Of a stretch of 49,305 nt of DNA, positions 288 to 49,305 are shown piece by piece. Position numbers and translations under genes: made by a program. The stretch lies in IMG/VR virus record IMGVR_UViG_3300033067_000179, positions 1 to 49,305 of that record; one strand, given 5' to 3'. Numbering within the stretch: the stretch's first letter is position 1; every line of letters begins with the position of its first letter. Origin of the DNA: a virus (taxonomy: Duplodnaviria > Caudoviricetes). Under the pieces are notes generated by a model. It was given only the letters and a program-made list of their open reading frames with translations, searched no databases and was not told the origin of the DNA.

Positions 288-372
288 CCCCGAGTGGTGA
301 AATTGGTAGACACAACGGACTTAAAATCCGTCGGTTACGGCCATGCCGGTTCGAGTCCGGCCTCGGGGACCA
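288..372 (+). tRNA. trnL: tRNA-Leu(UAA)
   Basis: acceptor CCCCGAG/CTCGGGG, A discriminator plus CCA, anticodon arm ACGGA-CT-TAA-AA-TCCGT, long variable arm, GGTTCGAGTCC T-arm. Confidence 0.96.
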
Positions 373-398: not shown

Positions 399-475
399 CT
401 GCCCGTAGCTCAGTTGGATAGAGCACGAGCCTTCTAAGTTCGGGGTCGGGGGTTCGATTCCCTCCGGGCAGACCA
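399..475 (+). tRNA. trnR: tRNA-Arg(UCU)
   Basis: acceptor CTGCCCG/CGGGCAG plus ACCA, D-arm TAGCTCAGTTGGATAGAGC, anticodon arm CGAGC-CT-TCT-AA-GTTCG, GGTTCGATTCC. Confidence 0.96.
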
Positions 476-10059: not shown

Positions 10060-10204
10060 AAAATCTCATTTCATCTTAGAAGATCCAGAAAAAATTTTTC
10101 TATTCGAGCACATTGACGGTATGTATAGCCTATGCTACAATGATAAAGGTGAGGTAGTTCATTTCGCAGCATGGACGGAGGTTAAACCTATTGACAAACG
10201 ATAA
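10037..10204 (+). CDS. small hypothetical protein (55 aa, below ORF-track cutoff)
   Basis: hand translation MKLYELPRKSHFILEDPEKIFLFEHIDGMYSLCYNDKGEVVHFAAWTEVKPIDKR; GGAG RBS; fills the primase-helicase gap. Confidence 0.7.
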   Translation: MKLYELPRKSHFILEDPEKIFLFEHIDGMYSLCYNDKGEVVHFAAWTEVKPIDKR

Positions 10205-11868: not shown

Positions 11869-12118
11869 ACGAAGTCTCTTGGTTTTGGGTGGGTTTCTTC
11901 TCGGGCTGTTGTTTGGCAGTTTATCTGTTCTCAAACTATACACGCCTCCCGAAACTCCGTATAAGAGCGCCTTCGAGGAAGAAAGACGAATCCGGATCTC
12001 CCACGAACGGGGGATCCTGAGTTGCATTAACAATGGTGCCTTTATTTTCATGCCGGGGTATAAAGACATTGGTAGATATGTAATCTGTACTCCAAAACCC
12101 TTGAGGTATAAGGATTGA
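11861..12118 (+). CDS. small protein with N-terminal transmembrane helix
   Basis: LLVLGGFLLGLLFGSL; overlaps both neighbours. Confidence 0.6.
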   Translation: MYERSLLVLGGFLLGLLFGSLSVLKLYTPPETPYKSAFEEERRIRISHERGILSCINNGAFIFMPGYKDIGRYVICTPKPLRYKD

Positions 12119-13257
12119 ATCCTCTCGTAATAGACGTAGAATCCACAACCCATGCTAAAGGTAATCCTTTTCATCATCGTAATCAACTTGTGTGTATTGG
12201 GTATGGTAGCAACGTGTCATGGTGTGATATCGCTTTATCTTCACAAGACAAGGCAGCAATTGAGCACGCTATCGATGATGCAGATTTACTTATTGGGTTC
12301 AATTTTAAGTTTGATCTTCACTGGTTGGAGCGCTATGGTATTAGTAATTGGAAAGACAAACTTATTTGGGATTGTCAGTTAGCTCAGTTCATCATTCAAG
12401 ATCAGCAAGTACGTTTTCCTAGCTTGAATGGTTCCTGTGAGTATTGGGGTCTTCCGGGTAAACTCGACACTATTAAGACACAGTTCTGGGACAATGATAT
12501 TGATACCCTTGAAATTCCTAAGAACCTCCTTGAAGAATATCTCCGACAGGATTTGGCTGCTACTTATTCTCTTTTCTTGAAGCAGACCGATTTCCTCAAA
12601 CAAAAACAACAAAAACTGAGGCTTATCAAGCTCCACAACAAAGACCTTCTTGGTCTTCAAGAAATGGAGTACAACGGGCTAAAGTTTAACTTTGAAGAGG
12701 CTAAAGCCCGAAGTGCAGAGTTGGAAAAGCAAATTTCTGGAATCGACGCCGAGCTTTGTTCTCGGTTTGGTAATTATCCCTTTAATTTTAACAGTGGGGA
12801 TCATCTATCTGCCCTACTATATGGTGGTAAGATCACGTTCAAAAGAAGTACCCCATACGAGCACACCTTTAAATCGGGTAATCGGGCCGGACAAACAGTA
12901 ACTCGTTTTAAGCATGACGAAGATGTTGTGGAGTTCCCCCGAGTGTTCACGCCTCTCCCACGTTCTGAGCTGAAAAAGTCCGGTTTGTGGGCAACAGATG
13001 AACCAACCCTAAAGCAATTAAAGGGGGACAAAAAGCTTATCCAAACCTTACTCGAACGAGCTAAGTTAGATAAGTTAAAGACAACTTATTACGATGGGTT
13101 TCCTAAGATGGCCGAAGAAGCTGGTTGGGTAGATGGGTATCTACATGGGCAATATAACCAAGCAGTAGTTGGTACAGGTCGTTTGTCTTCAAGTAGACCT
13201 AATCAACAAAACATCACGGAGGAAGTAAATGAGCTTATTGAATCAAGATATCTATGA
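12115..13257 (+). CDS. polA: DNA polymerase family A, N-terminal part (3'-5' exonuclease plus thumb)
   Basis: ExoI VIDVE, ExoII FNFKFDL, ExoIII Y..QD; ends after TGRLSSSRPNQQN. Confidence 0.92.
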   Translation: MNPLVIDVESTTHAKGNPFHHRNQLVCIGYGSNVSWCDIALSSQDKAAIEHAIDDADLLIGFNFKFDLHWLERYGISNWKDKLIWDCQLAQFIIQDQQVRFPSLNGSCEYWGLPGKLDTIKTQFWDNDIDTLEIPKNLLEEYLRQDLAATYSLFLKQTDFLKQKQQKLRLIKLHNKDLLGLQEMEYNGLKFNFEEAKARSAELEKQISGIDAELCSRFGNYPFNFNSGDHLSALLYGGKITFKRSTPYEHTFKSGNRAGQTVTRFKHDEDVVEFPRVFTPLPRSELKKSGLWATDEPTLKQLKGDKKLIQTLLERAKLDKLKTTYYDGFPKMAEEAGWVDGYLHGQYNQAVVGTGRLSSSRPNQQNITEEVNELIESRYL

Positions 13258-13552
13258 TTGGGGTAATGATGTAGAACCCGGATGGAAACATCTTGTAGAG
13301 CCACTTGTTTCTGAATGTAAAAAGAGGGGAGTTAAAATCGCTCAAGTAAAAGAGAAATTTGGAACTCTTAGATTTTATACCTATGGGCATGAAGACGAAG
13401 AACTCTCCAAACTTATTCGAGAAGCGGAAAAGAAGAGTGCTGTTACTTGTGAGTTTTGTGGAAAACCCGGTACTTTAGATGATTCTGGTGGTTGGTGGAA
13501 AACGACGTGTCCGGATCATACTTATGAAAAACGAAAAGCAACTATGAAATGA
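13229..13552 (+). CDS. hypothetical Zn-ribbon protein separating the polymerase halves
   Basis: QVKEKFGTLRFY and CEFCG...TCPDH; overlaps both pol halves. Confidence 0.8.
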   Translation: MSLLNQDIYDWGNDVEPGWKHLVEPLVSECKKRGVKIAQVKEKFGTLRFYTYGHEDEELSKLIREAEKKSAVTCEFCGKPGTLDDSGGWWKTTCPDHTYEKRKATMK

Positions 13553-14262
13553 TTGTTTCCGGTGACGTAAAAGGTCTCGAGGTTGTTGGTTGTGCTTATT
13601 TAAGTAGGGATGAAACTCTGATCCAAGAGATTCTTAACAAGGAAGATATCCATGCAAACAATCAAGCAGCGTTTAAGTTACCTAGCCGACTTATCGCTAA
13701 GATTTTCAAGTTTAGGATGATCTATGGAGGTACGGCTTTCAGCTACGCCAATGATCCAGATTTTCAGGGAGTATCAACCTCCACAAAGTTCTGGGAACGA
13801 GTCATTAGCAACTATTATGACAAGTACCCCGGTATCAAAAAATGGCACGATACCCTCATCCGAACTGTCAATGCTACAGGAATGTTGGAAATGCCTACTG
13901 GAAGATGTTATCAATTCGAGAGAGGCGGAGCGTATGGACTCCCAGAGACCAAAATTAAGAACTATCCAGTTCAGGGTCTTGGGGCTGACCTCGTGGCAAT
14001 TGCACGGGTATCTCTCCGTAGCTCCCTTAGACGAAGCGGCTTAGAGTACAAATACTTCAATACCATCCACGATCAGATTGGTGTTGACACACCTGCTGAT
14101 AACGTGTATAATGTATGTTCTCTTATGAAACAGGCTGTGGAAACTGTTCCAAATAATTTCCACAAACTCTTCGGAGTTACATTTGATCTGCCCCTTGAGT
14201 GCGAAATCAAAGTTGGTCCCAACTTCAAACAAATGGAGAAGTATGCTAATCCAAATCAATAG
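13549..14262 (+). CDS. polA: DNA polymerase family A, C-terminal catalytic part
   Basis: motif A DVKGLE, motif B RLIAKIFKFRMIYGG, NYPVQG, motif C IHDQ. Confidence 0.92.
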   Translation: MIVSGDVKGLEVVGCAYLSRDETLIQEILNKEDIHANNQAAFKLPSRLIAKIFKFRMIYGGTAFSYANDPDFQGVSTSTKFWERVISNYYDKYPGIKKWHDTLIRTVNATGMLEMPTGRCYQFERGGAYGLPETKIKNYPVQGLGADLVAIARVSLRSSLRRSGLEYKYFNTIHDQIGVDTPADNVYNVCSLMKQAVETVPNNFHKLFGVTFDLPLECEIKVGPNFKQMEKYANPNQ

Positions 14263-45110: not shown

Positions 45111-45184
45111 TGGCACGAAGGTAGGGATTTGAACCCCAACGAGCTGTTTTGGAGACAGCCATGCTACCGTTACATCACCCTCAT
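45111..45184 (-). tRNA. trnW: tRNA-Trp(CCA)
   Basis: acceptor ATGAGGG/CCTTCGT plus GCCA; GCTGT-CT-CCA-AA-ACAGC; GGTTCAAATCC. Confidence 0.88.
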
Positions 45185-45186
45185 GT

Positions 45187-45262
45187 TGGAGCAGCCACCC
45201 GGCCACGATCCGGGAACGCCTGCTTGGAAGGCAGGGATTTTGCCTACTTAAACTACAGCCGC
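45187..45262 (-). tRNA. trnG: tRNA-Gly(UCC), atypical T-loop
   Basis: acceptor GCGGCTG/TGGCTGC plus TCCA; CCTGC-CT-TCC-AA-GCAGG; T-arm CCCGG-ATCGTGG-CCGGG. Confidence 0.82.
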
Positions 45263-45273
45263 TTTAATAATTC

Positions 45274-45348
45274 TGGTGCCCCCTGAGAGACTCGAACTCC
45301 CTTCCGCCTGTTTACAAGACAGGGCTTCACCATCAAAGATTAGGAGGC
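45274..45348 (-). tRNA. trnT: tRNA-Thr(UGU), atypical D-arm
   Basis: acceptor GCCTCCT/AGGGGGC plus ACCA; CCTGT-CT-TGT-AA-ACAGG; GTTCGAGTC. Confidence 0.8.
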
Positions 45349-45615: not shown

Positions 45616-46100
45616 GTAAGGGATTTTGTCATCTCCTTGTTACCCTTTGATAAATTTAGAACTGCGGGGATAACTCGCAAATTATTCCAAACATGTAGTC
45701 CACAAACATTCTCACCATTTAATGGGATAATGTGATCTATATGCCATTTAAACCCTGTGCATTTTTCTCTTTGTCTAGCTAGGCAGTAAGCTTCTTGAAA
45801 AACAAAGGAAGTTAATTCATCGTGTCTAGAGGCAACTTTAGTTCTTTTATGTCTTTCTAAAACCCTAAAATTCCGCTTTTGTCTTTGTTCTGGAGACCAG
45901 TTTTGATATGATTTTTTATTTAAAGTTCTCCAATATTCTCGATTATTTTTTTGATGATTTTTTGTTTCTTGAAATTCACAATCTCGACAACGAGAAATTA
46001 AAATTGTTTTAGGAACTTTATTCCAAGTAGTAATGCGCTGCCTAAATAACCCTGTTTTTTTACATTTAGTACATAATTTATCACTGTAAATGTACGGCAT
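45612..46100 (-). CDS. HNH homing endonuclease with N-terminal Zn finger, AT-rich
   Basis: CTKC...CRDC; WHIDHIIPLNGENVCGLHVWNNL.VI....N..K.N. Confidence 0.88.
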   Translation of the reverse strand: MPYIYSDKLCTKCKKTGLFRQRITTWNKVPKTILISRCRDCEFQETKNHQKNNREYWRTLNKKSYQNWSPEQRQKRNFRVLERHKRTKVASRHDELTSFVFQEAYCLARQREKCTGFKWHIDHIIPLNGENVCGLHVWNNLRVIPAVLNLSKGNKEMTKSLT

Positions 46101-46600
46101 TATTGGGCCTCGAGTTGAACAGGGCCGATTACTTCCCCTGCCACTACTTTCTCTTCCCTAGCTTTAGTCAAGGCCGAGAATTGTTCCGCAAGCTTTGCCA
46201 GCCTGTCTCCGATAGCCTCTTTGCTCGAGATCGAAGTTGGTTTTCCACGGAGGAGGTTTCGTCGATTAATAATTTCAGTAGTAACTTTAGCAGCATCTTT
46301 CATGTACACAGGACGACGTTTAAAATCTCCTGATTTGGGGTCAAACATGAAATCCCCACGTTCCAGACGGTCTAGAATTACTTCTGTCGATTTGTCAATT
46401 AATTTAGATAATTTCCCATCAAGGGCATGGTCTTCTTCGCGTTGGATCTCATCAACAAGATCTTTGTACCACTCCCGGGTACGCCAATCTCGGATTGTCT
46501 CAAGCGGAATTCCAGTAGCCGCAGCAATCATTGGGGCCTTTAGGCCCATTGCATCAGCGGTAGCAGCTTCTACACGCTTCTGGTCAGACCAAGCTTTCAC
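46100..46600 (-). CDS. terS: terminase small subunit
   Basis: N-terminal HTH (IAAATGIPLETIRDW), helical oligomerisation region, upstream of TerL. Confidence 0.7.
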   Translation of the reverse strand: MKAWSDQKRVEAATADAMGLKAPMIAAATGIPLETIRDWRTREWYKDLVDEIQREEDHALDGKLSKLIDKSTEVILDRLERGDFMFDPKSGDFKRRPVYMKDAAKVTTEIINRRNLLRGKPTSISSKEAIGDRLAKLAEQFSALTKAREEKVVAGEVIGPVQLEAQ

Positions 46601-46979: not shown

Positions 46980-47007
46980 GAACTATTTGTAATTTCTTTT
47001 ACAAGAA

Positions 47008-47130
47008 GTATTATATAGTATTTATATATATTATATATATATAGTATTATATATAATTATATGTATTTATATAGTATTATATATATATATAGTTATATAT
47101 GTATTTATATATAATATATAATAATATACA
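47008..47130. repeat. extremely AT-rich TA-repeat tract (candidate origin or terminal region)
   Basis: repeats AGTATTATATA x3, ATGTATTTATATA x2; lies between divergent arms. Confidence 0.7.
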
Positions 47131-47653
47131 GTCCCCCGAGCAAAAGAAGTCCATGCGAGGGGTCGTCTTTCCCCCGAGCACATTAAAAGTTCCAGCAGGG
47201 GCCTTCTAAGGCTCCCTGAGCGATTTATCGGACAAGGTAGTACCCTAGACACTACCCGGAATCTAAAATTAACTAGCGCCGTTATAAACAGCCTTCCACA
47301 CTTTTTCCAGCCTCCAAGTTTTCCCCCCCACCCCCTTCATCCAGCCCTGCCCAGAATAAATACTCTAATACGGACATTAATGGATAATGTATAAGTTATC
47401 AATGTGTGTTTATACACTGTCTTTATAATCAGTAGTTTGCTTTGTCTCCTTAATAGGGATTGGCTATCAACATTCCCCCACTGATCCGGCCCTTAATGCT
47501 GGATACTAAGCCCGTAATCGGGAGCGAGGTTTCGATAGAAAAATATCATAGCCCCTACGCTGCGCTAAGGATCTGGCATTAACGCGCAGAGAATCAATGA
47601 CTTACGGATCAGACCTACTAGATCTAGTGGGGCTTGACAGGTTTTAGCGCGAC

Positions 47654-47681: not shown

Positions 47682-47742
47682 AGGAGTGTGTCGCGCACCT
47701 GCGCTACACGCAGTACCCAACCTACCAAACGGAGATTCAACG

Positions 47743-48354
47743 ATGGCTAAAAAAGTTGACAATGCGCAAGTGATCGGTGAGATGAACGAAGCGGATCAGG
47801 CGGAGATGCTGGTGATCGCGGAGAAACTCGAAGCCGCGCAGGGCGAGGGCTGGGCGTTCACTCGCCGCGTTATGTCGGAGATGTATGCTCCGATCCGCGA
47901 GGCCAAACAGCCGGGGCCGCTCGTCAAGCGCACGATCCTCATTGAAAACTTCCTGATGTACCTTCCCCCCGTCACTCCGGCCTATGCGACTTTCCGCCAG
48001 TACGCGCAGCGCATCGCGTCGCTGCTGGTGTCGGGGATCGCGGTTCCGGGTTCGAACGACGATGCGGATGCGCTCGTTAAGGCCGCGAACGCGGATCTCG
48101 GTATCGGCCGCCGGGAGAAAGCCCCGAAACAGCCGAAGGGCGCGAAGGGCGCGCAGAACAACGCTGCCCCGGAAAACGCGATCGACGTAGTGCTGGCCGT
48201 GCTGAAGACGGAAGGCAAGGGGAAGGCGAAATTCCTTGCGGCCCTTCGGAAACACGGGTACGAGTTGATGCCCGTTCTCGAAGCGGAGAAGCTTCGCGGC
48301 GACGCGAAGCACAACGCGGAAGCGCCGGCCCCCCGGCAACTGCGCGCCGCCTAA
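47743..48354 (+). CDS. GC-rich hypothetical protein (203 aa), monocistronic
   Basis: GGAG RBS plus ATG 47743; strong GC3 bias; own promoter and terminator. Confidence 0.85.
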   Translation: MAKKVDNAQVIGEMNEADQAEMLVIAEKLEAAQGEGWAFTRRVMSEMYAPIREAKQPGPLVKRTILIENFLMYLPPVTPAYATFRQYAQRIASLLVSGIAVPGSNDDADALVKAANADLGIGRREKAPKQPKGAKGAQNNAAPENAIDVVLAVLKTEGKGKAKFLAALRKHGYELMPVLEAEKLRGDAKHNAEAPAPRQLRAA

Positions 48355-48375
48355 CCTGCGACGCTCCACCCTCAC

Positions 48376-48403
48376 AACCCCGGCGCAAGCCGGGGTTTTT
48401 TTT
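48376..48403 (+). terminator. rho-independent terminator
   Basis: CCCCGGC-GCAA-GCCGGGG followed by T8. Confidence 0.92.
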
Positions 48404-48485
48404 CGCCCATAGTTTGTGTAATTCCCACCTAGTACCAGACCCTAAGCGCATAGCGCTAGGGTCGATCATTAATTGGGTAGACGCG

Positions 48486-48536
48486 CGTGTATGTATGTGT
48501 GTGTATTACTACTATGTATGTATGTATGCGTATGTG
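48486..48536. repeat. GT/TATG microsatellite-like tract
   Basis: GTGTATGTATGTGTGTGT...TATGTATGTATGTATGCGTATGTG. Confidence 0.6.
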
Positions 48537-48600
48537 AAAAGGTCGATCATAAACGGGGCATCATGGGGCAGGCAGGCAGCTACATCGGCATTAGCACGAC

Positions 48601-48628
48601 TTGACCCTACCGTCAAGTATGTTATAAT
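48601..48628 (+). promoter_or_regulatory. strong sigma70 promoter (extended -10)
   Basis: TTGACC-16 nt-TATAAT with TGn. Confidence 0.8.
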
Positions 48629-48662
48629 ATATATGTTGGGTAGTTGATTCGATACCAACCCC

Positions 48663-49153
48663 GCCCCTTAACAACTCACTAAAACGCGGTACTTACAACA
48701 ACAGTATTAAGTTGTAAGTCCGTACCAGAGTAGGTCCACCGAGAAATCGGCACGCGGCCGCAATCTTCTGCGGCCCAATAGTGAGTTCCTGTCCAACGCG
48801 ATTCGCAGAGTGTCAGCCGGGTTCGATCCCCGGTGAAGCTAGTTAGAGCCTGATTTTAGGTAGCTATACTAGTTTGGGCTAAACCAAAGGCGTCCATATA
48901 CCAACGAGTTAGAGCTAGTTGGGTATGCGGTCCGGCACAACGGTAGTGATGGTGCTCACTCCCTAAGCTGTAATAATCGGTGTAGTAGCTCTGGTGATTA
49001 GTCTGATTAGCAATCTCTCTTAGTGTGAGTGCGGAGGGAACAGGTGTCCAAACCTATTGCGAAACGCGAAAGGATTAATCCATAGCCCCCTAACACCTAA
49101 CAGGTCTGCGGTCAAAGTAGCAGCGGGGGCAAAGGGTCTCACCCTTTAAGGGC
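48663..49153 (+). ncRNA. candidate large structured non-coding RNA (~490 nt)
   Basis: no ORF of 60 aa or more; closing helix CCCTTAA/TTAAGGG, 9-bp AACTCACTA/TAGTGAGTT, many nested hairpins, T-loop GGGTTCGATCCC, GAAA tetraloop. Confidence 0.7.
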
Positions 49154-49179
49154 ACTAGCACTGTGCTAGGAGAATCACT

Positions 49180-49305
49180 ATGAAATGCAACAAAGTCACT
49201 GCCCAAGTCATCCTTGGTGTCCTCACGATCATGGGATACATTCGTGTCCCGCGTCTGATGGACGATCCGCTCGCGCCTATTGACTGGGTGCTCAAGCGGA
49301 TCACG
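49180..49305 (+). CDS. small hypothetical protein, continues across the window junction (48 aa if circular)
   Basis: AGGAG RBS; 42 codons to the end, then in-frame SSEALG* at 1-21. Confidence 0.6.
   Translation, partial: MKCNKVTAQVILGVLTIMGYIRVPRLMDDPLAPIDWVLKRIT

Follow-up and report, generated by a model that had tools for sequence, protein, structure and literature searches.

The window, that is, the whole stretch of DNA analysed here (49,305 bases), is an entire virus record. Its plus strand carries genes for an amidotransferase, a COOH-NH2 ligase, an amidoligase, an ATP-grasp protein, a primase, a helicase and a ribonucleotide reductase, together with a DNA polymerase gene split over two ORFs, while terminase, portal and capsid are encoded on the minus strand. 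In the polymerase region (12115-14262), a 107-aa ORF is located between the two polymerase ORFs, and the gene is also split in Alcaligenes phage vB_Af_QDWS535 (hereafter QDWS535). This phage is the nearest annotated or cultured one (capsid, 58.8 %; ligase, 43 %) and shares the gene order of the window. From an ORF that reads across the join and from the gene order of QDWS535, the window ends are taken to be joined. Rfam recognizes five tRNAs in the whole genome and nothing else. If the ends join, tRNA-Leu and tRNA-Arg follow about 420 nt downstream of the element described below; the first-pass annotation of this DNA had put them about 440 nt downstream. Three further tRNA genes (Trp, Gly and a third one found by Rfam only) are present on the minus strand at 45114-45348, directly before the terminase gene.

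Between the terminator of an early gene and a small ORF that runs over the window ends lies a stretch in which no plus-strand ORF of at least 50 aa is present, in agreement with the earlier statement that it holds no substantial ORF (Table 1). Just two of the ORFs listed overlap its ends, namely a 77-aa one (48414-48647) with its tail and a 5'-open minus-strand frame (49090-49305), and it is one of the three gaps of at least 300 nt without a 60-aa ORF in the genome. The promoter directly in front of it (TTGACC-16-TATAAT with TG) was rightly called near-consensus, and transcription would be expected to start near 48633-35. QDWS535 also has a terminator in the slot equivalent to that of the upstream terminator. 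The 3' limit of the element was set at 49169 because the likeness to the relative in public run X3 stops there, at the end of the last hairpin. No intrinsic terminator was found at the 3' end, and no plus-strand promoter-like site is present between the element and position 1087, so that one transcript likely carries the RNA, the small ORF (the first 42 aa of which have no PHROG match) and both tRNAs. The promoter and the position of the element suggest a discrete transcript and very early expression, but the missing terminator keeps a leader acting in cis in play.

Table 1 Features of the element and of its immediate surroundings
Feature	Coordinates	Strand	Basis or remark
Intrinsic terminator of upstream 203-aa early gene	48376..48405	+	9-bp stem and T run
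Sigma-70-type promoter, extended -10	48601..48628	+	11/12 consensus; no difference listed in X3
Structured non-coding element, whole	48635..49169 (~535 nt)	+	z -3.74; fewer differences than upstream; X3 likeness ends at 49169
5' hairpin, weak, predicted	48635..48659	+	Pair probability 0.45; z -0.46
P1 end-closing helix, 5' strand, predicted	48663..48671	+	Pairs with 49146-53; two registers
Domain 1	48673..48787	+	9-bp closing helix and four hairpins, one with GAAA tetraloop
Domain 2	48788..49044	+	Closed by 48788-92/49040-44, probability 0.45
Canonical tRNA-type T-arm	48817..48833	+	5-bp stem, 7-nt T-loop; invariant in X3, X18, X19
Long hairpin, redrawn from variants	48839..48872	+	Helix 48839-46/48864-72
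Hairpin, apical stem 48907-09/48914-16	48895..48927	+	Two one-sided changes keep pairs; one change in loop
D-arm-like hairpin	48936..48948	+	Possible T-loop partner, lead only
Candidate long-range partner of 49021-32 loop (pseudoknot or kissing, predicted)	48952..48959	+	
7-bp helix with 12-nt loop	49014..49039	+	Flush against Domain 2 closing helix; two compensatory pairs, one G-U to G-C, in X3
3' three-way junction	49085..49130	+	Closing helix probability 1.0; one variant breaks terminal pair 49095/49105
P1, 3' strand	49146..49153	+	Competes with hairpin 49131-47
Last hairpin, end of conserved element	49155..49169	+	Next to ribosome-binding site of following ORF; no T run
Small ORF	49180..49305, continuing over window ends	+	48 aa if read through
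tRNA-Leu(UAA)	288..372	+	Rfam, ARAGORN; likely co-transcribed with element
tRNA-Arg(UCU)	399..475	+	Rfam, ARAGORN; likely co-transcribed with element

Parts of the element were present in three metatranscriptomes from three studies, each with one contig at a depth of 2-3 (X18, 48667-48925; X19, 48756-48943; X20, 49046-49229). Two of these contigs lie wholly within the element and one extends 60 nt into the next ORF. Contigs of this kind carry neither strand nor ends and DNA carry-over would look alike; they provide a weak hint that the element is transcribed.

Various other features were observed in the surroundings. Low-complexity tracts are present at 46980-47130 (TA-rich; a similar TA tract occurs in QDWS535) and at 48490-48535 (TATG/TGTG), both of which are possibly origin or terminal-repeat features. 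At 47546-47643, 98 bases are swapped for 7 letters in runs X2, X3 and X4 and are retained in X8; this stretch is a variable insert in the likely genome-end region. Between the end of the upstream gene and the terminator (48314-48372) the relatives hold 113-327 different letters, which makes this a variable slot ahead of the promoter of the element. The contig of run X2 matches from 49137 on and has at least 255 unlike letters before that position, as would be expected of a relative in which the RNA body is diverged or absent. A stable hairpin (z -3.9) can be formed over the window ends (49200-49305 plus 1-44), inside the small ORF; this region is probably coding sequence, given that the changes at the loose end of run X2 (49253) seem to preserve the frame. 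The 9-mer GGTCGATCA has nine copies on the plus strand (38, 386, 1200, 3961, 6642, 9573, 24483, 48460 and 48541), eight of them in the early half, and none on the minus strand, while QDWS535 has 11 copies with identical polarity. A similar pattern, with a different sequence, is formed by the nick-site motifs that phage tf and LUZ24-like phages carry on one strand (PMC3517423).

Folding of the plus strand of the element gave the z score listed in Table 1, with none of 100 shuffles being as good, against -2.19 for the minus strand. Among 33 windows of 541 nt taken from the transcribed strand, the element ranked first (z -3.89; next -3.58, -3.54 and -3.23). The z score is a noisy measure, as in an earlier run with 10 shuffles per window the element itself scored -2.35 and five of 27 non-overlapping windows scored below -3.7. 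Thus, the element does fold better than its shuffled controls, but it is barely above the best coding windows, and perfect stems of at least 7 bp are not enriched in it (7 vs. 3-14). Folding energy is modest evidence and on its own insufficient to carry the claim of a structured RNA. Within the element, Domain 1 alone reached a z of -6.34 (0/200 shuffles as good) and the segment 48935-49013 alone +0.69, and four sub-segments have a z above -1.1.

All 23 motifs named in the first-pass annotation are present in the region, and the three helices for which it gave coordinates pair perfectly. In P1, 7/7 pairs can be formed (probability 0.44; alternative register, 0.62) and no variant falls inside the helix. 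The helices of Domain 1 have probabilities of 0.87-1.0, with one variant breaking a terminal pair (48681/48779), and in the closing helix of Domain 2 two one-sided changes (48788 C>T and 49042 A>G) keep the pairs. The earlier drawing of Domain 2 could be retained in part: its AGCTA/TAGCT and CTAAG/CTTAG stems overlap covarying helices and were replaced, while GCTCAC/GTGAGT survives as a possible pseudoknot between the 49021-32 loop and 48952-59. The repeated AGTTAGAGC noted in the same domain did not hold up, one or both copies being changed in all three relatives that cover the repeat. The tRNA-like T-arm, in contrast, is real and not a product of chance: the motif occurred in only 4/5000 shuffles, and the other four of its five matches in the genome sit in tRNA genes. 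The D-arm-like motif is at chance level (1316/5000 shuffles). Long-range pairing of the 49021-32 loop is predicted, as 49025-32 could form eight pairs with 48952-59, two of which are G-U; the stretch is invariant and has a competing partner at 48801-07. In the last hairpin, a variant at 49162 is located in the loop, and behind 49169 the sequence of X3 differs.

Better evidence was sought in strain variation. Of 22 public runs listed, 20 contain part of 48400-49305, and seven were compared. Variants inside the element were taken from X3, X18, X19 and X20, relatives which are ~97 % identical, with one contig per run; the depth of the contig is 11 for X3 and 2-3 for the other three, in which single differences may be errors. 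The changes at 48842 and 48869 are present in two studies. X3 has 17 differences in 580 positions over 48590-49169 and 90 over 47724-49169, which leaves 73 in 866 for the upstream stretch, low-complexity spacer included (Fisher p = 1.2e-5). Likewise, X8 has 14 differences in 546 inside the element (3 in 152 plus 11 in 394) versus 70 in 773 upstream. By these counts, the non-coding element has been conserved better than the stretch in which the neighbouring gene lies.

The element contains 23 variable places, of which 21 were scored; the remaining two, X3 changes at 48867-68 next to a deletion of one base, were interpreted manually. In X3, helix 49014-20/49033-39 carries two compensatory pairs (49018 T>C with 49035 A>G, and 49019 C>T with 49034 G>A) and, at 49016 T>C, a change from G-U to G-C. 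In both X18 and X19, 48842 G>A is accompanied by 48869 C>T, by which a G-C pair in helix 48839-46/48864-72 becomes A-U, and the bulged base 48867 is deleted. The X3 changes in the latter helix, as read by hand, retain the pairs as G-U, and local folding without the variants also recovers this helix. In the redrawn model, 18 variant events fall into three compensatory ones, five one-sided ones with the pair kept, seven in unpaired positions and three breaks at helix ends; the minimum-energy fold explains two compensatory events on the same variants and suffers five breaks. The long minimum-energy helix 48838-70/48979-49011 was rejected, being broken by 49004 and the 48867-69 changes (five breaks vs. 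three). The helix set of the first-pass annotation explains none of the compensatory changes, although such changes do occur in the relatives.

As the model was redrawn after the variants had been seen, a null was computed over all 100 possible stems of at least 7 bp. Two compensatory pairs in one intact stem were obtained in 9/4000 sets of clustered changes and in 0/4000 unclustered ones; with stems of at least 5 bp these numbers were 47/4000 and 1/4000. The single X18 pair was reached in 185/4000 and is marginal on its own. The covariation thus amounts to three compensatory pairs in two helices, in close strains, no distant homologues having been found. Both the tolerance of G-U pairs among the changes and the difference in folding between the strands (-3.74 vs. 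-2.19) point to RNA rather than DNA. We regard it as very probable that the element is a real, selected and uncatalogued large structured RNA. Of the earlier proposal of a new ornate RNA, the parts that stand are that it is structured, selected and outside Rfam, while the word "ornate" draws on three pairs among 97 %-identical relatives and on prediction.

The element is not represented in Rfam, which gave no match to it at E up to 10, neither a full-length one to GOLLD, ROOL, OLE, raiA, tmRNA or RNase P nor any other, and no GOLLD, ROOL, OLE or raiA match at gathering score in the whole window. Using blastn on 50,697 phage records, only 33-nt promoter matches were obtained, and a plasmid collection contained no relative of the RNA. 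In IMG/VR, the T-arm 17-mer pattern yielded at least 122 loci in 25/64 parts, the repeated 9-mer 65 loci, and the proposed pseudoknot pair at least 119 loci in 57/64 parts, none of which was a relative; the 9-mer is a poor probe, as relatives do not keep the repeat. A degenerate T-arm pattern gave 0 loci. Over 334 loci, blastn and nhmmer returned matches centred on the T-arm motif only (best nhmmer E, 0.033). JGI metagenomes contributed 0 and 5 loci and GTDB 3, all eight unrelated. No relative of the RNA was found at protein-anchored loci either (upstream gene, 0; gene at 46100-46600, 0; terminase, 28 at 59 % or less; ligase, 5 at 37-38 %). Two single-sequence covariance models, which are weak tools, found the source and T-arm fragments only, in 55 and 59 sources, and the 5' one of them, run without a positive control, had no match in 17 whole records. 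By blastn, patterns, neighbouring proteins and single-sequence covariance models, which are weak for diverged RNAs, the spread of the element appears narrow, with no distant homologue found. The lineage itself is rare, two neighbouring genes having 3 and 2 protein matches. In the literature, for which coverage is thin for subscription papers, no description of this RNA was found. Six 12-13-letter terms had no match in seven supplementary files of a viral structured-RNA catalogue (PMC10690425), two large files outside the search being able to hold a fragment, and nothing alike is named in the accessible parts of PMC12990946 and PMC10914365.

QDWS535, in which the genes are ordered alike, has only 148 nt at the equivalent slot and no tRNA genes. 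The element is therefore not needed for this genome plan and looks accessory, and within this pair of phages the RNA and the tRNAs come and go together. In the distant relatives L340 and L341, the syntenic gaps hold tRNA genes. At 4361-6427 of L341, tRNA genes and a 453-aa gene occupy the slot where the window has the RNA. By eye, we take the 453-aa protein to be TROVE/vWA-like; used as a query, it had no match in the window.

With slightly better than even confidence, we favour an RNA that acts in free form over a leader. Its two ends are able to pair, which fits a self-contained molecule, the sequence that follows it can be exchanged, and intrinsic terminators are not in excess over the early block. 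The host RNA polymerase would transcribe the element early in infection, from a start near 48635. As in the usual maturation of tRNAs, RNase P could then cleave at tRNA-Leu, and trimming to the 3' hairpin or P1 would release an RNA of about 490-535 nt, which would fold into a compact multi-domain form. The invariant T-arm is the one feature that points to a function. Given that the RNA and the tRNAs also occur together, it suggests that the RNA mimics the tRNA elbow as a decoy or is a translation-side binder. The T-arm would act in trans as a decoy of the tRNA elbow for host tRNA-binding or tRNA-cutting proteins, a last step that is a guess. As a whole, the decoy role is tentative, and we place it within a narrow range somewhat below an even chance; there is no acceptor stem, CCA or YrlA-type layout after the T-arm, the D-arm-like hairpin is at chance level, and no protein emerged as a partner. 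A function as antisense RNA to phage genes was discarded, the longest match being 13 nt. In its boldest form, the proposal is that the element founds a new class of large phage RNAs. Such an RNA would be the first to be made in infection, closed end to end, pseudoknotted and possibly multimeric, with a tRNA elbow built from the T-arm and a distant D-loop. As a decoy consisting of RNA only, it would divert host defences that target tRNAs, and the tRNAs transcribed along with it would meanwhile sustain translation; this is distinctly doubtful.

Four other explanations have to be weighed against the decoy reading. The main rival, unlikely as we consider it, is a leader acting in cis, in which the nascent RNA, in the manner of HK022 put or conAn2, would bind host RNA polymerase and carry it past pause sites and terminators across the 22-kb block of early and middle genes. 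The element opens this block, immediately downstream of a strong promoter, and is not followed by a terminator, and no RNA polymerase is present among the phage ORFs scanned (33 in PHROGs, 29 in Pfam). As far as the accessible texts go, conAn2 regions are about 260-600 bp and poorly conserved (PMC8191782), and put acts alone on early phage genes (PMC9378689). However, the 21.8 kb downstream contain two strong intrinsic terminators, no excess over the opposite strand (three) or QDWS535 (two), QDWS535 runs the equivalent block without the element, and further consensus promoters at 10113, 10191 and 14084 reduce the need for read-through. T-loops are common internal folding motifs, and in an RNA-only multimer or scaffold by analogy with ROOL, GOLLD and OLE the T-loop would be such an internal tertiary motif, while the free loops would kiss between molecules. 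The element fits in size and setting, one of its covarying helices carries an invariant 12-nt loop for which complements of 7-8 bp exist at other places in the RNA, and RNA cages built from kissing loops were first noticed as covariation (PMC12286853, in part). Yet Rfam has no match at E up to 10, no loop-loop pair covaries, the sole palindromic loop (49072-81) loses its symmetry in X3 through 49075 T>C, and raiA, likewise large, is described as a monomer in the same source, which leaves a multimer improbable.

That the element is a DNA element (an origin or a protein-binding array) or a spacer folding by chance is very unlikely. It is near the likely genome-end region, has a small folding margin over coding windows and no enrichment of stems, but the compensatory and G-U-tolerant changes, the canonical T-arm, a conservation above that of the coding neighbour and the promoter directly in front all speak for an RNA. 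Likewise very unlikely is a translational leader or riboswitch for the small ORF at 49180: the last hairpin abuts its ribosome-binding site, but X3 retains the RNA with other sequence directly behind 49169, so that the element is not tied to the next gene, no riboswitch family matches, and 535 nt is large for one 48-aa gene.

Whether the preferred free RNA or its main rival, the leader, proves right, the outcome would be new. The former would be a decoy or scaffold in the shape of a tRNA that acts early in infection, the latter an additional type of RNA antiterminator, found in a lytic phage of this layout. A small phage with the element and a cultured relative without it offer a natural with/without comparison, and the element is short enough for direct transcription, probing and imaging.

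Among known RNA kinds, YrlA and other bacterial and phage Y RNAs resemble the element in having a T-arm 5' of a D-loop-like element; according to the accessible text of PMC4201824, YrlA requires an acceptor stem and Ro60. The element differs in that it lacks a loop-closed acceptor stem after the T-arm, is much larger and has no Rfam match; no Ro60/TROVE gene turned up among the ORFs scanned, 33 of them in PHROGs and 29 in Pfam. Behind the T-arm, a register that resembles an acceptor stem, examined by hand, is not kept in X3, X18 or X19. Inspection by eye against consensus sequences revealed no complete YrlA-type permuted tRNA, group I core or canonical 11-nt tetraloop receptor at 48962-67. With tmRNA, two-piece forms included, it shares a canonical T-arm inside a large RNA, but it has no acceptor strand or CCA after 48833 and no tag frame. 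The earlier view that it is not a tmRNA, an RNase P RNA or a group I or II intron is borne out by ARAGORN, which reported no tmRNA, and by Rfam; an intron is also at odds with the flanks, which are a promoter and a ribosome-binding site and not a split gene.

Like put and conAn2, the element would be a structured RNA without coding function, placed close to where a long operon of a mobile element begins. In contrast to these systems, no operon rich in intrinsic terminators lies downstream and its ends are predicted to pair; conAn2, moreover, follows its partner gene within an operon, whereas the element is preceded by a terminator and a promoter of its own. GOLLD and ROOL, encoded by phages near tRNA islands, form RNA-only cages of unknown function, with ribosome binding reported for GOLLD in pull-downs (PMC12286853, in part). 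What the large ornate RNAs known from phages do is an open question, and the element is unrelated to them by every model tested. At approximately 535 nt it is close in size to ROOL (550-659 nt, as given in the accessible parts of PMC12990946 and PMC12286853). It further resembles both in being a large multi-junction phage RNA near tRNA genes, apparently accessory and with loops open to long-range pairing, and it differs from them in matching no Rfam model, in its narrow spread, in heading an early operon and in its canonical T-arm. Judged from sequence and position, the best reading is that the element is GOLLD/ROOL-like in its setting and stands outside both families.
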